Source of the DNA: Eubacteriales bacterium
Lineage (GTDB): Bacteria > Bacillota > Clostridia > Christensenellales > UMGS416
Reading direction: 5' to 3'
Assembly (NCBI GenBank): GCA_040883315.1
Contig: JBFLKU010000029.1
Span: forward strand, 1 to 64,000
Length of the DNA stretch: 64,000 nucleotides
The notes under the pieces are model-generated. The model was not told the DNA's origin, did no database searches, and was given only the letters and a program-made list of their open reading frames with translations. A program made the position numbers and the translations under genes. Position 1 is the first letter of the stretch; every line of letters starts with the position of its first letter. Of the stretch, positions 5,075-57,098 are shown piece by piece.

Positions 5075-5911
5075 GTGAGCACAAAGGCAAGGCTGATTGA
5101 TTTGGCTATTATAATTGTGCTGCTACTCACCGGGCTATACAGAGGGCCTGTGACAAGAAACTACAATGTAGAATCCGACAAAATACAAAACGAAATAACA
5201 ATAGCTGTGGCGGCAGACCTGCACAATCAGTTTGTGGGCGAAGACCAGCAAAAGCTGATAAAAAGGCTGGAAAAGGCACAGCCGGATATCATACTGATGC
5301 CGGGAGACATGACCAACTCCCCTTATGCAATAGACGGCATGGTCAGCTTTATGAAGCAGGCGGCAGAGATAGCCCCCTGCTACTATGTGATAGGCAACCA
5401 TGAATACTGGAGCGGTGAGTACCAGAAAATATTAGACATAGTGGAGCAAACAGGCGTGGTGGTGCTGCGCAGCGAGATGACACAGCTAGATATAGCGGGC
5501 AGCACAATAGAGCTATACGGAGTAGATGACTGGGATGCGAATATATGGGATGCCACATACAAAGAAAAAAACTGGGCTGCTCATCTGGATGAGATGTGGA
5601 CAGAAAATGATGAAAACACCTTCAGAATATTGATGAGCCACCGCCCGGAGCGAGTGGAAGACTATAAAGAATATGAATACGACCTGATAGTATCCGGGCA
5701 TGCCCACGGCGGACAGGTGCGGATTCCGTTTTTTTTAAATGGGCTGTATGCACCCGACCAAGGATGGTTCCCCAAATATGCAGGCGGCGAATACCAAATA
5801 TCTGATGCCACCACAATGATTGTGAGCCGCGGCATATATAATTACCCCAATATGCCAAGAATATATAACCCATCGGAAATTGTTATAATAACAATTTCCG
5901 GAAACAATTAA
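5075..5911 (+). CDS. Metallophosphoesterase (calcineurin-like phosphoesterase), membrane-anchored
   Basis: Motifs 'GDMTN', 'GNHEY', 'SGHAHGG', with an N-terminal TM segment. GTG start. The last about 12 codons are encoded by the first palindrome of the downstream repeat array. Confidence 0.8.
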   Translation: MSTKARLIDLAIIIVLLLTGLYRGPVTRNYNVESDKIQNEITIAVAADLHNQFVGEDQQKLIKRLEKAQPDIILMPGDMTNSPYAIDGMVSFMKQAAEIAPCYYVIGNHEYWSGEYQKILDIVEQTGVVVLRSEMTQLDIAGSTIELYGVDDWDANIWDATYKEKNWAAHLDEMWTENDENTFRILMSHRPERVEDYKEYEYDLIVSGHAHGGQVRIPFFLNGLYAPDQGWFPKYAGGEYQISDATTMIVSRGIYNYPNMPRIYNPSEIVIITISGNN

Positions 5912-6430
5912 TAACCTAAAACTGCTATCACTTCCACATGCCTGCAAAATTTATTCGTAAGAATAAATGCAAGTGCTAGCAGGCTGGATGGCGTGGAATA
6001 CACTAAAGCACAGTGGAAATCGTGATTATCACGATTTCCGGAAACAACTAAACTATCGAAACCAATATCATCTTCCACATGCCTGCAAAATTTATTCGTA
6101 AGAATAAATGCAAATGCTAGCAGGCTGGATGGCTTGGAATACACTAAAGCACAGAGGGAAATTGTTATAATAACAATTTCCGGAAACAATTAATAAACTA
6201 GGATAGCTATCATCTTCCACATGCCTGCAAAATTTATTCGTAAGAATAAATGCAAATGCTAGCAGGCTGGATAGAGTGGAATACACTAAAGCACAGTGGA
6301 AATCGTGATTATCACGATTTCCGAAAACAATTAATAAACTAAAACAACTATCACTCCCCCATGCCTGCAAAATTTATTCGCAAGAATAAATGCAAAAAGC
6401 TAGCAGACCGGATAAAAGACTTATAAGGCA
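5875..6430. repeat. Tandem array of a ~141-bp structured repeat (about 4 units plus a leading partial unit)
   Basis: Unit starts at 5901, 6041, 6183 and 6324 (period 140-142). Each unit carries CATGCCTGCA, the hairpin ATTTATTCgtaaGAATAAAT, GCAGGCTGGAT..AGCACAG and a perfect 25-nt palindrome GGAAAT[CGTGATtATCACG or TGTTATaATAACA]ATTTCC. Confidence 0.85.
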
Positions 6431-6437
6431 AAAACAT

Positions 6438-7091
6438 ATGATAAAAATGAAAATAAAAGCAATAATTTTTGATTTGGATGGTGTTCTGCTTTTCACAGAT
6501 GAATACCACTATCTTGCATGGAAAAAAATCGCAGATGGAATAGGCGTGTATTTTGATCGCAAAATAAACAACCGACTAAGGGGCGTCAGCAGAGAAGAGA
6601 GCCTGGAGATAATACTGGAGAATGATGCAAATCGATTTGACAGCTATGAAAAGAAGGCTTTTCTGAATGAAAAAAATGAATACTATAAAAAACTGCTGCA
6701 GAATATGACTCCAGATGATGTGGAGCCATTAGTGCGGGAAACCCTATCGAAAATTAAGCAAATGGGCTACAAAATAGCCATTGGCTCATCCAGCAAAAAC
6801 ACCAAATTCATATTAGAGAGAGTGGATATGCTGAATGTTTTTGATGCCATTTCGGACGGCACAAATATCACAAATTCCAAGCCTGACCCCGAGGTTTTCG
6901 TAAAAGCTGCACAGATGCTGGATGTGCCTGCCGAGCAGTGCTGCGTGATAGAGGACGCCGCTGTGGGCATACAGGCAGCTAAGGAAGCAGGCATGGTGGC
7001 TATCGGCATAGGCGACGCCAGAAACTACCCAGAGTGTGACTATAAAATAGACAGCTTAGCAGAGCTTATAGACATAATAACTAATTATTGA
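6438..7091 (+). CDS. HAD-superfamily hydrolase, beta-phosphoglucomutase family
   Basis: 'IIFDLDGVL' motif I, 'SS..N' motif II, a K and 'EDAAVGIQAAKEAGM' motif IV. Start at ATG 6438 or 6447 (track ORF begins at 6390). Confidence 0.8.
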   Translation: MIKMKIKAIIFDLDGVLLFTDEYHYLAWKKIADGIGVYFDRKINNRLRGVSREESLEIILENDANRFDSYEKKAFLNEKNEYYKKLLQNMTPDDVEPLVRETLSKIKQMGYKIAIGSSSKNTKFILERVDMLNVFDAISDGTNITNSKPDPEVFVKAAQMLDVPAEQCCVIEDAAVGIQAAKEAGMVAIGIGDARNYPECDYKIDSLAELIDIITNY

Positions 7092-15084: not shown

Positions 15085-15747
15085 TTATTCATCTATTGCT
15101 TTTACGACCAAAGTGGACAGCCCCACGATGCCAACCACCTGCACCATGTCGCCTGTGGCGTGCTTTTTGCCGTCGTTGGCTACAGCCGATGCCTCCACTA
15201 GCCTGTCCTGAATGACCACCTGCACCTTGCCCTTAAATCCGTTTTCTTTTAGCAATGGGATATACACCTCGGCAGTCTGACCTATGGCATTTTTATAGTC
15301 TATGTTTCCGCTGGACTGGAGCCTGGCTGTGATATAGAAAAGATAGCCAATAATAAACATAGCAAACAATCCTGCAAGCACTGCTATAAATATTGCAAGT
15401 GCTGTGTTCATGCCTTTGCCAAGGAGCACTATGCCCGTCCATGGGAAAACTGTGAGAAATGCGATAACAGTTCTGAAAGATACAAACCTGAAATCTGTAT
15501 TCCCAAAATCTGCGGCGTCTGCATCTGTGCCGTCTGCGTGGAAATCCGCCGTGTCCATGTCGCCATCGATATCCATATCGCCATCGAAGTCTATGTCTCC
15601 GTCAGCGTCGCCCACGTCCACATCGCTGTCGCCGGTCAGCCCTATCACCGACAATATAAACTGAATGGCCAACACCAAAGTAGAAGGTATTGCCACATAA
15701 TAAAAGAACTGCTCAAGGGTAGTAAGTGCTTCCCACCATGCTGACAT
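15085..15747 (-). CDS. NfeD-family membrane protein (YuaF-like), partner of flotillin
   Basis: TM segments, Asp-rich linker and a C-terminal OB-fold-like tail. AGGAGA RBS 7 nt before ATG 15747 (track ORF extends to 15795). Gene order nfeD-flotillin as in yuaF-floT. Confidence 0.75.
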   Translation of the reverse strand: MSAWWEALTTLEQFFYYVAIPSTLVLAIQFILSVIGLTGDSDVDVGDADGDIDFDGDMDIDGDMDTADFHADGTDADAADFGNTDFRFVSFRTVIAFLTVFPWTGIVLLGKGMNTALAIFIAVLAGLFAMFIIGYLFYITARLQSSGNIDYKNAIGQTAEVYIPLLKENGFKGKVQVVIQDRLVEASAVANDGKKHATGDMVQVVGIVGLSTLVVKAIDE

Positions 15748-16982: not shown

Positions 16983-17048
16983 ATGAACTGAGGGATTTTC
17001 AAGGGACAAGTCCCTTGAACAGGGCATGGGGCAGAGCCCCATAACAAT
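16983..17048 (+). repeat. Dispersed double-hairpin element, copy A
   Basis: ATGAACTGAGGGAT..CAAGGGACaaGTCCCTTG..GGGGCAGAGCCCC. Homologous to copies at 39491 and 58371. Confidence 0.5.
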
Positions 17049-17128
17049 CTTTCTTGGCTCTCGGTATGTTTTTTCAAAACATTCCTGTCGCCCAGCGTAT
17101 TCCCTTTGGGAATTACTTGCCCTAATAA

Positions 17129-19234: not shown

Positions 19235-19441
19235 ATGATTATAGTACGTCTGGACAAAATGATGGCCGACCGAAAGATTTCATTAAATGAGCTTTCAGAG
19301 AAAGTAGGGCTTTCCAATGTGAATCTTTCTTTGCTGAAAACCGGCAAGGTGAAAGGGATCCGCTTCAATACACTGGATGCAATCTGCGAGACATTGGACT
19401 GTACACCAGGAGATATTTTGGAATACGAAAAGGAACTTTGA
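19235..19441 (+). CDS. XRE-family helix-turn-helix transcriptional regulator (YozG-like)
   Basis: 'ISLNELSEKVGLSNVNLSLLKTGKVKGIRFNTLDAICETLDCTPGDIL'. Confidence 0.8.
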   Translation: MIIVRLDKMMADRKISLNELSEKVGLSNVNLSLLKTGKVKGIRFNTLDAICETLDCTPGDILEYEKEL

Positions 19442-19456
19442 GTATTATAAAATATC

Positions 19457-19775
19457 GAAAACAATTATCAACAAAAATATCTATAGGCTACTCATGCCTG
19501 AATGGTTAATTCCTTGGAATTAACATCACATTAGTGATTGCAGGCTGAATAGCATAGATTTAGTAAAAAGCATAGTAGATATCCTAGAATATGAAAGAGA
19601 ATCTTGAATGTTCTAGATATCACAAAACAATTATCAACAAAAACATCTATGGGCTACTCATGCCTGCATGGTTAATTCCCTGGAATTAACATCACATTAG
19701 TGATTGCAGACTGGATAGCACAGATTTAGCAAAAAGCTTACAGATATCCTATAGCATGTTCTAGATATCACAATA
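19457..19775. repeat. Two tandem copies (167 and 152 bp) of the same structured repeat family as 5875-6430
   Basis: Shared 5' 'AAAACAATTAtcAAcaAAAAcATCTAT..CTCATGCCTG(C/A)ATGG' and 'TTGCAG(G/A)CTG(G/A)ATAGCA(C/T)AG'. Internal perfect palindromes GTTAATTCCttGGAATTAAC and ATCACattaGTGAT. Confidence 0.8.
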
Positions 19776-19834
19776 ATGAAAAATGGTCCGTATGGAAAGC
19801 AATCTATACGGACCAAAAAATAAGAGGTAAAAAA

Positions 19835-20503
19835 ATGAAAGAATCAAATAAACTAAGTCTGCAGAAGGCAGGCGGAATATCCATGATATACGCAGGACTG
19901 GCATACCTAGCGATGATAGTATATTTCCTAGGGATAATAGACTATACAAGCATCACAGATGCAGGCGAAAAAATACAGCTTTTTTCACAAAACCAAGCTG
20001 GCTTCTATGTAATATATCTGCTGGGCTATGTGATTTTCGGATTGGCTTTGGTGGTTATTTCCCTGTCACTATACGAAAAGCTAAAGCAATCATCCAGCAT
20101 TACAAAAATTGCCGCAGTATATGGCATTATATGGGCAGCTCTTTTGATAGGAGCAGGCACAATATATAATAGAGGAATTGCAACTGCTGTGCAGATGTAT
20201 GCCAGCGACCCAGCAGGCGCAATAGCGTTTTTGAATGCCACTGAAGCCACAGCACTTGGCATCAGCTTTTCAGACGGCGAAATACTGGGCGGCCTTTGGA
20301 CACTGCTTATAAGCATTGCAGCAATGAAGGGAAAAATATTTAACAAGGCAATTAATTATTTGGGCTTGGTTGTGGGCACTGCAGGCATATTGTCAGTCAT
20401 ACCTGCTATCAACGAATTCGGAGGCACTGGAATATTTGGCATAGGTCAGATGATATGGTTTGTATGGGTTGGCATACTGATGCTAAAGGAAAAACAAGCA
20501 TAG
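19835..20503 (+). CDS. DUF4386-like polytopic membrane protein (paralog of 17961-18611)
   Basis: Similar length and topology. AAGAGG RBS. Confidence 0.55.
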   Translation: MKESNKLSLQKAGGISMIYAGLAYLAMIVYFLGIIDYTSITDAGEKIQLFSQNQAGFYVIYLLGYVIFGLALVVISLSLYEKLKQSSSITKIAAVYGIIWAALLIGAGTIYNRGIATAVQMYASDPAGAIAFLNATEATALGISFSDGEILGGLWTLLISIAAMKGKIFNKAINYLGLVVGTAGILSVIPAINEFGGTGIFGIGQMIWFVWVGILMLKEKQA

Positions 20504-25653: not shown

Positions 25654-26454
25654 CTATATGTTAAGGTTTTTTCTTTTGAATATATAAGCTGATAGAGCGA
25701 ATATGCACGCAGCCACAAAAAGAAGAACCAGCGACAATATTAAACCATAAGGAATATTATTGAGTATCTTGTTTGTATCTAGAAGTGTATATGGCGACAT
25801 ATATTTGAAGAACTCAACCCCGCTTCCAATCTCGGAAATAATCTTAAGCATTACAAACAGCACCGGTATGCCTGCCCCGAATGCCAGCGAATACTTGGCA
25901 TCATTAAATATGCATGATGACAAAAAGCTGACAGACCCAACTGCAATGAGCAATAGCAGAGTGACTAAGTTTAAAACCAAGAAACTGCCAATTTCCAGAT
26001 GCCCCGGCCACAGGATAGCGCATAGCACTACAATTATAGATGTAATAAATCCCAAGAGAGCAGTAGTAGAGAGAATAAAATATGCAGCCTGTGTTGTGAT
26101 TATTTTTCCTCTGGTATTAGGTGTGGATAGCAAATATGCCATTGAGCCTTTGTCAACATGTCCAGCAACCAAAGAGTTCGCAGCTATAATGGTATATATC
26201 AGCGGAAAAACCAGCAGAATAAACCCATAAAAATAGCTTGCAAGGTATGTAGTCAAATTTGTTCCTAGTCCGTCAAAGCCAAAAGCTTTTACCATGCCTT
26301 CGGGCATCATGCTGAATACAGCCTGTATTGATGCTGCATCTTCCGGATTAAACATTGCTATTGCAGCAGATACATATATCATTATCATAAATAAGATAGC
26401 GGCAAAAGGAATCCAGTTAAATTTAATATTAGCTTTCAATAATGTGCTATTCAT
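25654..26454 (-). CDS. ABC-2 family transporter permease
   Basis: Six-TM ABC-2 topology, directly downstream of the ATPase with a 1-nt junction. Confidence 0.8.
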   Translation of the reverse strand: MNSTLLKANIKFNWIPFAAILFMIMIYVSAAIAMFNPEDAASIQAVFSMMPEGMVKAFGFDGLGTNLTTYLASYFYGFILLVFPLIYTIIAANSLVAGHVDKGSMAYLLSTPNTRGKIITTQAAYFILSTTALLGFITSIIVVLCAILWPGHLEIGSFLVLNLVTLLLLIAVGSVSFLSSCIFNDAKYSLAFGAGIPVLFVMLKIISEIGSGVEFFKYMSPYTLLDTNKILNNIPYGLILSLVLLFVAACIFALSAYIFKRKNLNI

Positions 26455-27339
26455 TTATTTATCCTCCTTTGAACTATAGTATTTCATAAAGGCGTTCTCC
26501 AGTGACATCTGCTGAGAATCCAGAGAAATAACATCACACTGCAGCAGCATTTTATAAAAATCCTTAAATGGATAAACTGTAGATATTTTCACCGTGTTCT
26601 CGTTAACCTTTTCCGACTCAAATTCACTTTTCAAGATGAAATCTACATCTTTGCTGCTTCCTAAAGTCACCAAATATGTTTTTGTCTTTTGAGCTATTAG
26701 TTCCTTTACATCTTCAATTGCAGCAATACGACCATCTTTAATAATTCCTACTCTGCTGCAGGATTTCTGCACCTCTTCGAAAATATGAGATGACATCAGT
26801 ATGGTCTTTCCTTTTTTGTTTTCTTCGTCTATCAATTCAGAAAATTCAATCTGCATCAGTGGATCCAGCCCGCTTGTTGGTTCGTCCAGAATATATACAT
26901 CCGGATCATGCATAAACGCAGCAATAATTCCTAGCTTTTGTTTCATTCCCTTGGACATCTTTTTAATTTTGCCGCTCGTATCCAAATCAAAGCGTTCTAT
27001 AAGCGAATCCATACGAGTGAAATCCTTCATGCATCGCATATCGCCCATAAATTTCAAAAATTCTATGCCGTTCATTGAATCCAGCAGATTCATTTCACCC
27101 GGCAGATAGCCCACCATTTTTTGAATTTCGCAGGCATCTTTCCAGCAGTCGAGTCCGTTGATTCGGCAGCTGCCCTCAGCAGGGGCAACAAAGCCCAGAA
27201 GGCTTCTGATGGTTGTTGTTTTTCCTGCGCCGTTTGGCCCCAAATAGCCAAATACTTCACCCTTTTTCACACTGAATGTTACATCATAAATCCCCTTTTT
27301 GCTCGGATAGACATAATTCAAACCGTTTATCTCTATCAT
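26455..27339 (-). CDS. ABC transporter ATP-binding protein
   Basis: Walker A 'GPNGAGKTT', signature 'LSKGMKQK', Walker B 'ILDEPTSGLD'. Confidence 0.9.
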   Translation of the reverse strand: MIEINGLNYVYPSKKGIYDVTFSVKKGEVFGYLGPNGAGKTTTIRSLLGFVAPAEGSCRINGLDCWKDACEIQKMVGYLPGEMNLLDSMNGIEFLKFMGDMRCMKDFTRMDSLIERFDLDTSGKIKKMSKGMKQKLGIIAAFMHDPDVYILDEPTSGLDPLMQIEFSELIDEENKKGKTILMSSHIFEEVQKSCSRVGIIKDGRIAAIEDVKELIAQKTKTYLVTLGSSKDVDFILKSEFESEKVNENTVKISTVYPFKDFYKMLLQCDVISLDSQQMSLENAFMKYYSSKEDK

Positions 27340-27386
27340 ACTTCCCTCCTAATTTTTTTATATGCTTTGGCATTATGCCAATTACA

Positions 27387-27950
27387 TCACCTATCATTTC
27401 GCTTTACTAGCCCATAAAAGTAAATCTCTCTAAGCTGAGTCTGCATTTGGGCATTGTTTTCAAATAGTTTCTTTTCATACGCTTCTTTTGCAAACTCATT
27501 GAATTTTTGGGTTACATACCAAATTACCTCAGTTGATAAATCAGGATTAATCTCGCCTTTTTCCTGGGCTTTTTTTATGTTGCTCAGATATCTGTTTTTT
27601 ATTGCTTCCTGCTGATTATGAATATATTCCAAATCCATAATGTCGTTCATAAATTCTTCCGTCATCGAGGATGCAAATTCAATTCGCCATGCCGTTGTCA
27701 AATCTATTTTTTCCATGAAGGATATATCGCGTTTATTAATCTCATCAAATTTTGCAAAGCCTTCCTCTGTAAGCTGGTCTCTTATCTGAACTGCTAGCTC
27801 TGTCTTGTTCTTGAAAAATTTATAGAAAGTCATCTTGCTTACATTGGATTCTGTGCATATTTCCTCCACAGTTACACGCTTGACACCATATTTAAAAAAT
27901 AATCTTTTTGCAGTATCTACAAGCGAATTATATTTTTCAGAATTCTCCAT
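27387..27950 (-). CDS. TetR/AcrR family transcriptional regulator
   Basis: 'VTVEEICTESNVSKMTFYKFFKNKTEL'. Confidence 0.85.
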   Translation of the reverse strand: MENSEKYNSLVDTAKRLFFKYGVKRVTVEEICTESNVSKMTFYKFFKNKTELAVQIRDQLTEEGFAKFDEINKRDISFMEKIDLTTAWRIEFASSMTEEFMNDIMDLEYIHNQQEAIKNRYLSNIKKAQEKGEINPDLSTEVIWYVTQKFNEFAKEAYEKKLFENNAQMQTQLREIYFYGLVKRNDR

Positions 27951-44406: not shown

Positions 44407-45084
44407 TTATCCATCCATCTTTTTCATCATATCCATAGTCATATCCAGGTATTCTACCGCAGGCTGCTTAATGGATATCACAGCACCATCTGCATTTAGT
44501 GCATGGTTGATGGTATCCTCCACAAACTGTGCACGGGATAGAAAATCCTCATACAGTTTTTCATCGCCTTTATTTACTATAATCTCTGTCACTTTCCCAT
44601 ATAGCCTAGTCACCTCGTGTGTCCACATCTCTGCCAGTGCCTTGGGTGAAGCCGGACTGAAAAGCCCTTGTTCTATTCCCTTTAATATCAGCTTTTCATA
44701 TATGCCGGAGAGCAGGTCTATAAAGTCGAATGCCATCTTCTGCACTATAGCGTCGCTGTCCTTATGGGCATAGATATTTATCAGCTCTTTCCAGTCGGAA
44801 AGTCTTTGTTTCTTGTAGTCATTCAGGCTGCTAAATACAGTATTCAGCAGATAAATCGTGTCGTTTTCCGTGCTCTGCAGCATGCTTTCATATAGCTTTA
44901 CAATCTCCTTGAAAAACCTATTGGTTATCTCCTCCAAGACCTCTTTTTTGGATGCAAAGTGATGATAGAACCCGCCCTTGCTGCTGCCCGATCTTTCCAC
45001 TATCTGCGCTATAGTAGCCTTTTCATATCCGTATTCGCCGAATATCTCCAAAGCCGCCTGAACTATTCTGTCCTTCAGATCCAC
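44407..45084 (-). CDS. TetR/AcrR family transcriptional regulator
   Basis: 'IVQAALEIFGEYGYEKATIAQIVERSGSSKGGFYHHF'. GTG 45084 with AGAGGTGA RBS (track ORF to 45171 overlaps the permease). Confidence 0.75.
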   Translation of the reverse strand: MDLKDRIVQAALEIFGEYGYEKATIAQIVERSGSSKGGFYHHFASKKEVLEEITNRFFKEIVKLYESMLQSTENDTIYLLNTVFSSLNDYKKQRLSDWKELINIYAHKDSDAIVQKMAFDFIDLLSGIYEKLILKGIEQGLFSPASPKALAEMWTHEVTRLYGKVTEIIVNKGDEKLYEDFLSRAQFVEDTINHALNADGAVISIKQPAVEYLDMTMDMMKKMDG

Positions 45085-45095
45085 AAAATCACCTC

Positions 45096-45911
45096 TTATA
45101 TTGCTAGGCTCTTTTTGTTGAATATTATAACTCCCAGCGAATATAGAGCTGCCGATGCCAGCACCAGACACAGGCTGACTATCATTACATATTTGTTGTC
45201 ATTCAGCACTTTGTCTGTGTTCAGCAAAGTATATATGCTGAAATATCTGAAAAAGTCCACCTTTTCACTGATGTCTGCCAGCATCTTGAACAAAACAAAT
45301 GCTATCGGTATGCCTGCCCCGAATGCCAGGGATGCCTTTGAGTCGCTGAATATGCACGAAGCCAAAAAGCTGATGCTGCTGACTGCGAGTATAATAAAAA
45401 GTGTTACCATATTCAGCACCAAGAATCTGCCTATTTCCAGATGCCCCGGGAATATTGCCTCCGATAGCCCAATCAGCACGCCAACCATAAACGAAAGCAT
45501 TGCAGTCAGGGATATTATCAAATATAGTGCCTGTGTCATTGCCACCTTTATTCGGGTGTTTGGTGTAGCCAAAATATAGGACATAGACCCTCTGTCTACG
45601 TGCTTGGCTATCAGATTGTTTGCAACTATGGATATATATATTATAGGAAAGACCAAAAGGATGAATCCATATAAGTACCCTGCCAAATATGTGGTCAGGT
45701 TGGTTCCCAACCCCACAAATCCAAAAGCCTTTATCATTCCCTCCGGCAGCATGTCAAACATTGCCTGCATTGCCGTTGCACTCTCCGGGTCGAACATTGC
45801 TATTGCTGTGGAAACATATATCATCAGCATGCCAACTATAAAAACAAAAATACCCCAGTTGGATTTCATATTGGTTTTAAATAATGTCCAGCTCATATTA
45901 TGCCTCCTCAT
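45096..45911 (-). CDS. ABC-2 family transporter permease (paralog of 25654-26454)
   Basis: Alignable to the first permease, e.g. 'MFNPEDAASIQAVFSMMPEGMVKAFGF' versus 'MFDPESATAMQAMFDMLPEGMIKAFGF'. Confidence 0.8.
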   Translation of the reverse strand: MRRHNMSWTLFKTNMKSNWGIFVFIVGMLMIYVSTAIAMFDPESATAMQAMFDMLPEGMIKAFGFVGLGTNLTTYLAGYLYGFILLVFPIIYISIVANNLIAKHVDRGSMSYILATPNTRIKVAMTQALYLIISLTAMLSFMVGVLIGLSEAIFPGHLEIGRFLVLNMVTLFIILAVSSISFLASCIFSDSKASLAFGAGIPIAFVLFKMLADISEKVDFFRYFSIYTLLNTDKVLNDNKYVMIVSLCLVLASAALYSLGVIIFNKKSLAI

Positions 45912-46779
45912 TTTCGTAGTACTTCATAAACATATTTTCCAATGTGATGTGCTCCACTTCCAGCGACTTTACATCGCACTTTGAAAGCAGTGCATAGAAA
46001 TCATTAAATGGATATGATGCAGATATTTTCACTTTTGTCTCGCCCACTTTTTGCGTGTCGAATTTGCTATCCTCTATCAGCTTCATGTCCTTTTTCTTCC
46101 CTAGTGTCACCACAAATGTCTTGGTATTTACAGAGTCTAAATCCCCGATGTTTTGAATGGTTACAATTCTTCCATCTTTTATTATGCCTACTCTGTCGCA
46201 GGATCTCTGCACCTCTTCGAAAATATGCGAGGACATCAGTATAGTTTTCCCTCTGCTTTTCTCTTCCTTTATAAGCTCCATGAATACATTCTGCATCAGC
46301 GGATCCAATCCGCTGGTTGGCTCATCCAAAATATAAACTTTAGGGTCATGCATAAATGCAGCGATAATTCCAATTTTCTGTTTCATGCCCTTGGACATCT
46401 TCTTTATCTTGCCGCTGGCATCCAGATCGAATCTTTTTATCAGCTCTTCCTTTCGGCTGGTGTCCTTCATGCCTCTCATTTCGCCAAGGAATTTCAAAAA
46501 TTCATTCCCCGTCATATAGTCCAGCATATTCATTTCGCCGGGAAGATACCCAACCATCTTTTGCAGCTCTGCGGCATTTTTTCTGCACTCCAGACCATTT
46601 ACAACCGCACTTCCGCTTTCTGCATTGGCAAAGCCCATCAGCCCGCGTATGGTGGTAGTCTTGCCTGCGCCGTTTGGACCAAGATAGCCAAATACTTCGC
46701 CTTCAGCCACACCAAAGCTGACATCGAATATGCCCTTGCCGCTTTTGTATACCTGAGTCAGGTTGTCCACTTTTATCAT
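45898..46779 (-). CDS. ABC transporter ATP-binding protein (paralog of 26455-27339)
   Basis: Walker A 'GPNGAGKTT', 'LSKGMKQK', 'ILDEPTSGLD'. Confidence 0.9.
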   Translation of the reverse strand: MIKVDNLTQVYKSGKGIFDVSFGVAEGEVFGYLGPNGAGKTTTIRGLMGFANAESGSAVVNGLECRKNAAELQKMVGYLPGEMNMLDYMTGNEFLKFLGEMRGMKDTSRKEELIKRFDLDASGKIKKMSKGMKQKIGIIAAFMHDPKVYILDEPTSGLDPLMQNVFMELIKEEKSRGKTILMSSHIFEEVQRSCDRVGIIKDGRIVTIQNIGDLDSVNTKTFVVTLGKKKDMKLIEDSKFDTQKVGETKVKISASYPFNDFYALLSKCDVKSLEVEHITLENMFMKYYENEEA

Positions 46780-56313: not shown

Positions 56314-57087
56314 TTAAAATCCTCCGTTTTGATTTGTGCTAATTATTTCTTTTAATTTCTCTATAGTTAAAGTATCATTTCTTCTTCTGTGTATCATTCT
56401 ATGGCAATTAGAACATACTGGTACAACATTTTTTAATGCACTATCAATAAACATATTGGCATCTTGCTCTTCATATGTATATATTGGCTTTTGATGATGT
56501 ATCTCTATGTATCCATCACCTCTAGCTCCATATTTAGCTTTAAAATCAAATTTACAAGCATCACATAAAATTACGCCATTATGCGTGTAATATTCTATCG
56601 CAATATTTCTTAGTTTAGCTGACCTTTCATATACTTTATTTCTTATTGTTTTTCTGCTTCCCTCATATACAAAAATATTTTCATCATATACTAAAGGTTT
56701 TCTTTTTCTCTCGATTGAATCTGTAATCTCTACTAATGTATCTTCTATATCTATATTTTCAAAATCATTGTCTATCAAATATTCGAAAATATCTTTGTTC
56801 TGTTCAATATACTCTTTCCCTTTTTCTGTAATAGTATGCGAACCATTCCTTTGCCCTTTAATCGTTGTATAGCCTAGTTGGTCGTCAAGTTTATGATGGG
56901 ATACCAAATTCCTAACAATTTGGGTGAATCTTGCATCATTCCTACTTCCGTAGTTTTTTAAATCTTCTCCCGTTGGATTAATTAAATTTGATAATTCCAA
57001 AATCAAGTCACTAGTTTTTATATTCGGATTATTACTAATTACATACAAAGCCGGAATTACTAATTCTTTTTCAGAAACTCTAGACAT
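56314..57087 (-). CDS. HNH-family endonuclease, candidate Type II restriction endonuclease (AT-rich island)
   Basis: C-terminal 'CDAC...GYIEIHHQKPI...VVPVCSNCHRMIH' HNH. An 11-nt gap separates it from the upstream MTase gene. About 28% GC versus about 48% in the flanking DNA. Confidence 0.7.
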   Translation of the reverse strand: MSRVSEKELVIPALYVISNNPNIKTSDLILELSNLINPTGEDLKNYGSRNDARFTQIVRNLVSHHKLDDQLGYTTIKGQRNGSHTITEKGKEYIEQNKDIFEYLIDNDFENIDIEDTLVEITDSIERKRKPLVYDENIFVYEGSRKTIRNKVYERSAKLRNIAIEYYTHNGVILCDACKFDFKAKYGARGDGYIEIHHQKPIYTYEEQDANMFIDSALKNVVPVCSNCHRMIHRRRNDTLTIEKLKEIISTNQNGGF

Positions 57088-57098
57088 TATCTTCTCCT

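Follow-up and report, generated by a model that had tools for sequence, protein, structure and literature searches.

A tandem array at the end of a phosphoesterase gene and a family of small structured interspersed repeats in a genome of the Christensenellales

RESULTS

A tandem array follows the phosphoesterase gene

The stretch of DNA analyzed here, the first 64,000 nucleotides (nt) of contig JBFLKU010000029.1 in an assembly of a Eubacteriales bacterium from the Christensenellales (GCA_040883315.1), is hereafter called the window and carries a tandem array between the genes for a metallophosphoesterase and a HAD-family hydrolase. Each unit of this array (locus 1) consists of a locus-specific hairpin followed by a shared noncoding element of about 116-120 nt, which we designate E. 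E is found at two unrelated loci in the window and, in a second species, at the site orthologous to locus 1; in a third lineage it is seen as a filled/empty polymorphism. It represents a previously undescribed family of small structured interspersed repeats, of a known kind but unusual in its duplication, which the hairpin delimits, and in the layout of its arrays.

Tandem Repeats Finder assigns positions 5875-6413 a period of 141 in 3.8 copies (85% matches) or, in an alternative call, of 283 in 1.9 copies (89%). Four 25-nt palindromes begin at 5875, 6015, 6157, and 6298, all of them perfect, with 12-nt arms about a single central base (12+1+12), and they alternate between two versions, GGAAATTGTTATAATAACAATTTCC and GGAAATCGTGATTATCACGATTTCC. 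No such palindrome arose in 100 shuffles of the window, and a search of the 64 kb with up to three mismatches allowed found no copy of the palindrome outside the locus 1 array. The unit boundaries read ...CACAGT/GGAAAT and ATTTCC/GGAAAC, and the locus is laid out as follows:

5075-5911, + strand: metallophosphoesterase coding sequence (CDS; Pfam Metallophos), its final 37 nt inside the array
5875-5899, + strand: hairpin copy 1, version TGTTAT, within the CDS; perfect 12+1+12; RNA fold of -10.1 kcal/mol
5900-6014, + strand: E copy 1, with G-poor 5' linker, junction motif at 5935-5989, and 3' linker; covariance model, 87 bits
6015-6039, + strand: hairpin copy 2, version CGTGAT; noncoding, with the EIVIITIS reading kept
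6040-6156, + strand: E copy 2, motif at 6076-6130; covariance model and alignment
6157-6181, + strand: hairpin copy 3, version TGTTAT; palindrome search
6182-6297, + strand: E copy 3, motif at 6218-6272; covariance model and alignment
6298-6322, + strand: hairpin copy 4, version CGTGAT; palindrome search
6323-6437, + strand: E copy 4, the most diverged, with a GCAA loop and two broken pairs in helix P1 (see below); no terminal hairpin after it
6438-7091, + strand: HAD-family hydrolase CDS (Pfam), the same start being called in an independent assembly

The array is therefore as the first-pass annotation had described it, a 141-bp tandem repeat with four palindromes in two alternating versions, and it is borne out by Tandem Repeats Finder, by the palindrome search, and by an independent short-read unitig assembly of the same sample (Logan, SRR28267356). 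One Logan contig stops at 5914 and the next begins at 6294, the exact limits of the unique 31-mers, so that the contigs carry the two flanking genes separately and the locus 1 array is unspanned. Because these break points match repeated 31-mers, the reads call for two or more copies of either unit type, which means that the array is not the artifact of a single assembler.

Units 1-3 carry the first hairpin of the junction described below (hairpin 1), flanks included (GCCTGC...GCAGGC), with no more than one mismatch, and unit 4 is more diverged. The motif is 98-100% identical among units 1-3, compared with 62-78% for the adjacent 5' linker, and the locus 1 array has 2.6 times the GGA triplet density of the window overall. 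The proposal that a block of two units was duplicated fared unevenly: the palindromes and tails support it, and the variable linker lends it weak support, with 75% identity between units 1 and 3 and 83% between units 1 and 4. The 3' linker of E copy 4 abuts the HAD start codon directly. A terminator scan from the array to the HAD gene found no terminator-like site, and no promoter-like site was found inside the arrays. At 6414-6440, the HAD gene has a Shine-Dalgarno-like AAGG and a start codon that fall within or abut this last 3' linker, which can be aligned with the 3' linkers of the locus 2 copies, and E may have supplied the translation-initiation region of the HAD gene.

The first palindrome belongs to the phosphoesterase family

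The earlier suggestion that the array overwrote or created the 3' end of the phosphoesterase gene holds for its very last codons and fails for the palindrome. When 22 homologues are aligned, NPSEIVIITIS agrees with FNPSEVVxITI, the consensus of the family, and the family C-terminus is kept in 21 homologues, most of them without the array, so that EIVIITIS is native. Relatives at 62-66% phosphoesterase identity (L004, L006, L009, and L019-L023) have neither the array nor E and share the C-terminal ending, and the gene-end hairpin is itself present without the array as a 27-nt palindrome with one G.T in L019 and as 11 pairs including two G.U in L006. The GNN-stop codons (5900-5911), GGAAACAATTAA, are derived from E, since the same 5' end, GAAAACAATTA, opens E at locus 2. 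Units 1-3 read EIVIITISGNN-stop and unit 4 reads EIVIITISENN-stop, a single non-synonymous change in the tail.

The paired substitutions between the two palindrome versions had been taken as a sign of structural selection. In frame, the palindrome reads G GAA ATT GTT ATA ATA ACA ATT TCC, and as its center is a third codon position, wobble positions pair with wobble positions. Codon positions 1 and 2 of E-I-V-I and I-T-I-S, on the two sides of the center (GA/AT/GT/AT and AT/AC/AT/TC), are self-complementary by themselves. All five of the five differences between the versions fall at third codon positions and are synonymous, and the paired changes alone therefore cannot separate structural from coding constraint. 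The chance that both paired changes would fall in the 4 wobble-wobble pairs among 12 is 6/66 = 0.09, or about 0.03 once the one paired change of the second species (L003, see below) is included, which makes their placement suggestive rather than decisive. A stronger sign of structure comes from hairpin 1 and the junction of which it is part. A more general lesson is that "compensatory" variation in a palindrome over a coding end may be wholly synonymous and that the reading frame should be checked first.

E recurs at a second locus in the window

A covariance model built from locus 1 and L003 only (R1) and run with filters off finds E at 19491-19559 and 19657-19725 (38 and 42 bits; expectation value about 1e-8) and nothing further above noise in the 64 kb. 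Weak matches to the model at 15360, 26021, 33147, and 36766 all lie inside coding sequence and were rejected. A broader model built from all eight copies (R2) recovers the same six copies in the window and no additional ones in the window or in the fetched loci. By blastn, the copies at locus 1 and locus 2 are 65-67% identical over about 117 nt, and the homology runs from GRAAACAATTA, 1-2 bases off the 3' base of the hairpin, to AAAGCAYAGT before the next hairpin. Locus 2 is a 166-bp tandem repeat of two units at 83% identity plus a truncated third hairpin; the repeat starts with a hairpin (arms of 21 nt) placed across the stop codon of an HTH_26 gene, and an independent Logan contig matches the locus base for base:

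19235-19441, + strand: HTH_26 (Cro/C1-type) regulator CDS, Pfam residues 5-67 of 68; its last codons form the left arm of hairpin H'1
19411-19456, + strand: hairpin H'1, 21-nt arms and GAA loop, spanning the stop codon; fold of -13.1 kcal/mol
19457-19576, + strand: locus 2 E copy 1, motif at 19491-19559; R1 38 bits, R2 65 bits; blastn 65-67% to locus 1
19577-19621, + strand: hairpin H'2, a diverged copy of H'1 in which the two arms have changed in concert; still reads DILEYERES-stop
19622-19741, + strand: locus 2 E copy 2, motif at 19657-19725; covariance models R1 and R2, alignment
19742-19769, + strand: hairpin H'3, a copy of H'2 that has lost an internal segment; non-E sequence comes next

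The gene downstream encodes a DUF4386 protein. At both window loci the duplicated gene-derived segment is the hairpin, with ends within 1-2 nt of its base, and the hairpin copies keep the frame and most of the peptide (at locus 2, DILEYEKEL versus DILEYERES). The hairpin sequences at locus 2, and at a further locus in a third lineage (L048, see below), are unrelated to the locus 1 palindromes. E itself always lies within 1-2 bases of the 3' base of a hairpin and on the sense strand of the flanking genes.

A separate hairpin with 13-bp arms (TGGTCCGTATGGA / TCTATACGGACCA) occupies 19784-19815, after the locus 2 array and before the DUF4386 gene. With AAAAAT before it and an A run after it on the + strand, it is terminator-like for the opposite strand, although both neighboring genes are on the + strand.

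E preserves a three-helix junction

E opens with a G-poor, unstructured 5' part of about 38 nt that begins with GRAAACAATTA and ends with a 3' linker of about 25 nt. Between them lies a three-helix junction with the order CAUGCC-P1, an 8-bp P2 closed by a tetraloop of the GNRA or CUUG type, a short P3, and P1'-GGCUGGAU; the "hairpin 1" recognized earlier is part of this P1/P2/P3 junction. In the alignment of eight copies, which come from only three lineages and were fitted to the model, 97.9% of cells are paired and 8 of 18 pairs are changed on both sides. When the partner columns were shifted by 1-3 positions, these slid controls gave 22-46% paired cells and no both-side changes, and a plain MAFFT alignment gave 92.8% paired cells and 7 pairs changed on both sides. 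RNAalifold, applied to a structure-blind MAFFT alignment of the whole element, recovers P1 and P2 as well, with no pairing in either the 38-nt 5' stretch or the 3' linker. The sense strand scores 65-85 bits with R2, compared with at most 17 bits for the antisense strand, and sense-strand G.U pairs occur in the hairpins of L003, locus 2, and L006. The fold is thus preserved through changes on both sides of pairs and on the sense strand only. The expectation that a conserved fold exists and that further copies would vary in a structure-preserving manner is upheld in the junction. The P2 loops are GUAA (five copies), GCAA, GGGA, CUUG, and CCUG, and broken P1 pairs are seen in copies at the array edges, with GCAGAC in the last copies of locus 1 and locus 2 and GGCUGAAU in the first copy of locus 2.

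Selection does not appear to act on a small protein, in agreement with the first reading of the in-unit open reading frame (ORF). The ORFs that start from the conserved CATG read MPAKFIRKNKCKC, MPEWLIPWN, MPTSQFGRIDITK, and MPTGVNLS, vary among the copies in length (8-13 codons) and sequence, and have no Shine-Dalgarno sequence upstream.

Copies in other lineages

An ENA contig (L003) carries a phosphoesterase 75% identical to that of the window, with the hairpin in the end of the CDS, a spacer of about 116 nt, and a second hairpin followed by only about 28 nt of E. The spacing of the hairpins is 141 nt, as at locus 1 of the window. From locus 1 to L003, P1 changes from UGC/GCA to GAC/GUC, P2 from AUUUAUUC/GAAUAAAU to GUCAAUUC/GAAUUGAC, the base of P3 from GC/GC to AU/AU, and the tetraloop from GUAA to GGGA. 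Both hairpin copies of L003 have a G.T at positions 11/15. The downstream noncoding hairpin is identical at 23 of 25 positions between the window and L003, compared with only about 50% in the linkers; in both species it has G10/C16 and the coding copy has T10/A16. This likeness may reflect either purifying selection on the noncoding hairpin or partial gene conversion from the coding copy. By position the E copy of L003 (2105-2220) corresponds to locus 1, yet it is closer to locus 2 (19623-19741): the two share their P3 (AUCAC...GUGAU), and locus 2 is its only blastn match. This suggests that dispersed copies may have been exchanged or replaced.

A second structured intergenic repeat, unrelated to E and without a match in Rfam, is shared by window positions 16995-17125 (+ strand) and L003 2283-2400, where it directly follows the array. 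The two are 74.6% identical over 67 nt by blastn (expectation value 1.4e-7), and their hairpins are changed on both sides, ATGTTTTTTCAAAACAT versus ATGTTTCTAAGAAACAT and GTATTCCCTTTGGGAATTAC versus GTATATCGCAAGCGATATTAC, around a conserved TTTCGCCCAGCGTAT.

The junction pattern has 30 matches in JGI metagenomes, of which 29 are chance or coding matches and one, L048, is genuine. Among those dismissed are a GC-rich coding family and L052, which reaches a model score of 30 bits yet lies inside an ORF. L048 has one E copy in the 3' untranslated region (3' UTR) of an unrelated membrane-protein ORF, with its own 11-bp hairpin before it and a terminator after it. L056, whose ORF is 84% identical to that of L048, is without the 127-nt insert, and an 18-nt stretch that is single in L056 stands on both sides of the insert in L048. 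The duplicated flank varies in length (18 nt in L048, 25 nt for locus 1, 45-46 nt for locus 2) and is not a fixed 2-10 bp. The notion that the locus 1 array is a leader or regulator specific to the HAD gene is not sustained, as E follows three unrelated genes and in L048 the terminator comes after E.

The recorded gene call for L056 (482-925) reads TGA as tryptophan and yields a 147-aa product. Under table 11 the ORF stops at the same codon as the L048 homologue, and the record probably carries a wrong genetic-code assignment for a short contig.

Searches for known families and rejected identities

A scan of the 64 kb against Rfam 15 at gathering thresholds gave zero matches, and permissive scans of 5700-6600, 19380-19840, and L003 1900-2424 gave at best 12-24 bits, against thresholds of 35-90, from unrelated families. 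The Rfam scan proposed at the outset thus returned no family, and the unit had no match to a known insertion sequence (IS), a known MITE (miniature inverted-repeat transposable element), or a known RNA. The array had no blastn match in plasmids and phages, the exact hairpin 1 pattern had 0 matches in GTDB species genomes and viral contigs, the palindrome-plus-tail pattern had 0 matches in JGI metagenomes and viral contigs, and the junction pattern had two matches in viral contigs, both coding. A protein-guided scan of GTDB genomes for the phosphoesterase reached no more than 40% identity in its best relative, and the lineage is thus absent from that genome set. A spurious 93-aa antisense ORF in the array matched, in the protein collection, only the hypothetical protein of the same metagenome-assembled genome (MAG).

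Three identities were tried and rejected. Mimicry of the 16S rRNA 3' end was suggested by the base of helix 45, which reads GCC...GGCUGGAU; the octamer varies (GGCUGAAU, GACUGGAU, GACCGGAU), no anti-Shine-Dalgarno sequence follows it, and the Rfam rRNA models are unmatched, and the idea was dropped. A template/variable repeat (TR/VR) pair of a diversity-generating retroelement does not fit, as there is no reverse transcriptase, the coding stretch that repeats is just 25-46 nt long, and the differences show no adenine specificity. We also set aside a CsrA-type sponge, as the GGA enrichment is modest and is absent or weak at locus 2.

Window context

The window is ordinary chromosome, with an Rnf operon, L25, Lgt, and TetR/ABC cassettes. 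Two of the cassettes, at 25654-27950 and 44407-46779 (- strand), are paralogous and have three genes each, for a TetR regulator, an ABC ATPase, and an ABC-2 permease. At 56314-58262 (- strand), a D12-class N6-adenine DNA methyltransferase lies beside a 257-aa ORF (56314-57087) with a sub-threshold HNH match. The pair is probably a restriction-modification system, and the HNH match, about 50 kb away from locus 1, is the sole nuclease-like one in the window.

DISCUSSION

The array and the arrival of E

In our judgment the evidence is evenly balanced as to whether the locus 1 array arose by local amplification of a gene-end stem-loop together with one copy of E, itself a dispersed repeat. E would have arrived by a target-duplicating insertion via staggered cuts at the two bases of the hairpin or, alternatively, by copy-choice at a stalled fork, and the array may then have grown by re-insertion into the duplicated hairpin or by unequal recombination. 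The hairpin-exact duplication at both window loci, taken with the filled and empty sites of L048 and L056, favors target-duplicating insertion, and locus 2 fits it well, with three hairpins, two E copies, and then unrelated sequence.

Several observations weigh against this account. At locus 1 the hairpins and the E copies both number four and the array does not end in a hairpin, an arrangement that plain tandem duplication fits better than repeated insertion does, and the same is true of the second hairpin of L003 with its short remnant of E. Because both fit poorly, unequal recombination and deletions must also have acted, and it is possible that plain tandem duplication did most of the work. 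The stretch duplicated in L048 is not a hairpin and resembles the 3' linker of the L003 E copy at 11 of 14 positions, and L056 could therefore be the footprint of a deletion rather than a virgin site. The conservation of the noncoding hairpin beyond that of the linkers argues that the host or E needs its sequence, which a purely selfish reading leaves unexplained. E is known from only three lineages, with two loci in 64 kb. The window ORFs scanned, those of 150 aa or more, gave no transposase, reverse transcriptase, integrase, or Cas1/Cas domain. Inverted-repeat searches at both loci returned only the hairpins and P2, so that E is without terminal inverted repeats, and its ends (GRAAACAATTA... 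and ...AAAGCAYAGT) are not complementary.

Alternative explanations

The strongest rival, which we nevertheless consider unlikely, is that E is a functional RNA under host selection, such as a 3'-UTR small RNA, a protein-titrating sponge, or a ligand-binding domain, with tandem copies raising the dose and dispersal reflecting recruitment. Such a role would account for a fold kept through both-side changes in three lineages, for a P2 capped by known stable tetraloop classes, for the conservation of the locus 1 motif relative to its linker and of the noncoding hairpin between species, and for the density of GGA in the locus 1 array. However, E follows genes as unrelated as those for the phosphoesterase, the HTH_26 regulator, and the membrane protein, and the genes it precedes are unrelated too; the arrays hold no promoter-like site, the individual units are without a terminator, the edge copies with broken P1 pairs have the look of decaying repeats, the L056 lineage does without E, and locus 2 is weakly enriched in GGA (13.8 per kb, compared with a window value of 10.2 per kb). 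A plain minisatellite, in which an ancestral hairpin and 3'-UTR segment were tandemly duplicated by slippage or unequal crossing-over, with template switching keeping the palindromes, and which would be functionless and immobile, seems to us distinctly less probable. The copy numbers are non-integer (about 1.1, 1.5, 2.2, and 3.8), the units at the edges have diverged furthest, both versions of the palindrome are perfect by Watson-Crick pairing, as DNA-templated correction would give, and at locus 1 the count of hairpins equals that of E. Set against this, E is homologous at two unlinked loci in unrelated gene contexts and so moved at least twice, the gene-derived part is exactly the hairpin at both window loci, unlike the random end points of such a process, L048 and L056 differ by a clean insertion, and the compensatory changes of P1, P2, and P3 between lineages need a pairing constraint.

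There is little to recommend the idea that a dimeric regulator or recombinase binds the palindromes as operators in double-stranded DNA, with the array as a cluster of sites that controls the HAD gene. Perfect 12-nt inverted-repeat arms, a second, overlapping palindrome (TTTCCGGAAA), and an extended -10-like sequence in version 1 (TGTTATAAT) would suit it, but the -10-like sequence is lost in version 2, the hairpins of locus 2 and L048 have unrelated sequences, the G.T of both L003 copies would be tolerated in a folded strand and breaks duplex symmetry, and the palindrome follows largely from the codons of a conserved peptide and is present without the array in L019 and L006. Least credible of all is an assembly artifact, in which strain variants of a single-copy region were concatenated. 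The source is a MAG, and short-read unitigs do not span locus 1; yet the unitigs break exactly at the limits of repeated 31-mers expected from a 4-unit array, each break needs two different continuations in the same sample, the other assembler reproduces locus 2 identically, and L003, from an unrelated sample and species, has the same tandem layout in one contig.

Comparison with known repeats and elements

Among known repeats, the REP/BIME sequences of enterobacteria and pseudomonads, with their RAYT transposases, are like E in being short structured repeats at gene 3' ends that are co-transcribed. They differ in that the REP palindrome is itself dispersed in hundreds of copies, whereas here the palindromes are locus-specific and gene-derived, the dispersed part is the E element of about 118 nt, and only two E loci are present in 64 kb. 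No RAYT (Y1 transposase) was found among the window ORFs scanned. Like the locus 1 array, REP/BIME sequences form regular arrays of two alternating palindrome versions, and they fold in mRNA, whose stability they can influence (PMC2817692).

MITE-like repeats are a further familiar class of small dispersed sequences, from which E differs in having no terminal inverted repeats, in its strict sense orientation at all four loci, and in a flanking duplication of 18-46 nt that takes in the whole hairpin, compared with 2-9 nt for MITEs. ERIC, BOX, RUP, Correia, and bcr1 are noncoding, dispersed, RNA-folding repeats of about 100-170 nt, and MITE-like repeats can lie next to or over stop codons, can supply stops, and in some cases have sub-repeats in tandem within them (PMC2229807, PMC4596501). 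Two mobile elements that occur in Firmicutes, group IIC introns and IS1272 (IS1182 family), insert beside or into gene-end inverted repeats and recognize structure rather than sequence (PMC1702495, PMC5678879). As with group IIC introns, E lies in sense orientation directly 3' of an inverted repeat at all four loci; those introns, however, are at least 600 nt long, have ribozyme domains, and cause no duplication, whereas E is 116-127 nt, encodes nothing, and leaves the hairpin duplicated. Neither Intron_gpII (Rfam) nor a reverse transcriptase was found in the window. IS1272 encodes a transposase and replaces its target inverted repeat without duplication, in contrast to the duplicated hairpin left by E.

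The likeness to CRISPR is one of layout only, with a palindromic repeat-insert-repeat order, a repeat duplicated with each insertion, and a GAAAC-like sequence after the hairpin. The "spacers" formed by E are 115-120 nt long, where about 26-72 nt would be expected, and are 62-100% identical by part, the "repeats" are pieces of coding sequence, and the window yielded no cas domains. Head-to-tail structured RNA units transcribed with a neighboring gene are also known from ToxI of type III toxin-antitoxin systems, tandem rsmX, and STAXI. All of these are tied to one partner gene, however, and they are either units of 34-60 nt (ToxI) or independent genes with their own promoter and terminator, in contrast to the period of 141 or 166 nt here; the genes after the arrays encode a HAD hydrolase and a DUF4386 protein, not an endoribonuclease toxin, and Rfam models for tandem small-RNA and antitoxin families had no match here. 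As for integron attC sites, the unit boundaries, judged by eye, are not R''/R' core sites (RYYYAAC ... GTTRRRY), and the window has no integrase.

Implications

For the host, the hairpin and junction would be co-transcribed as a generic 3'-UTR or intercistronic structure that may act as a decay barrier or a processing site. By analogy with REP/BIME, ERIC, and BOX, we infer that any effect would be that of stable stem-loops within a co-transcribed unit and would not be gene-specific.

A bolder and correspondingly doubtful possibility is that E is a non-autonomous mobile element whose machinery recognizes a gene-end stem-loop, cuts at both of its bases, duplicates the hairpin, and so builds arrays with a CRISPR-like layout, the junction serving as the recognition handle in RNA or single-stranded DNA. 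If this were true, an uncultured lineage of Clostridia would harbor a repeat that chooses the hairpins at gene ends, duplicates them, seeds arrays, and rewrites the last codons of the genes it follows, a combination of traits not described for REP, MITE, group IIC intron, or IS1272-type elements. Such a repeat would suggest an integration mechanism that measures the structure of DNA or RNA.

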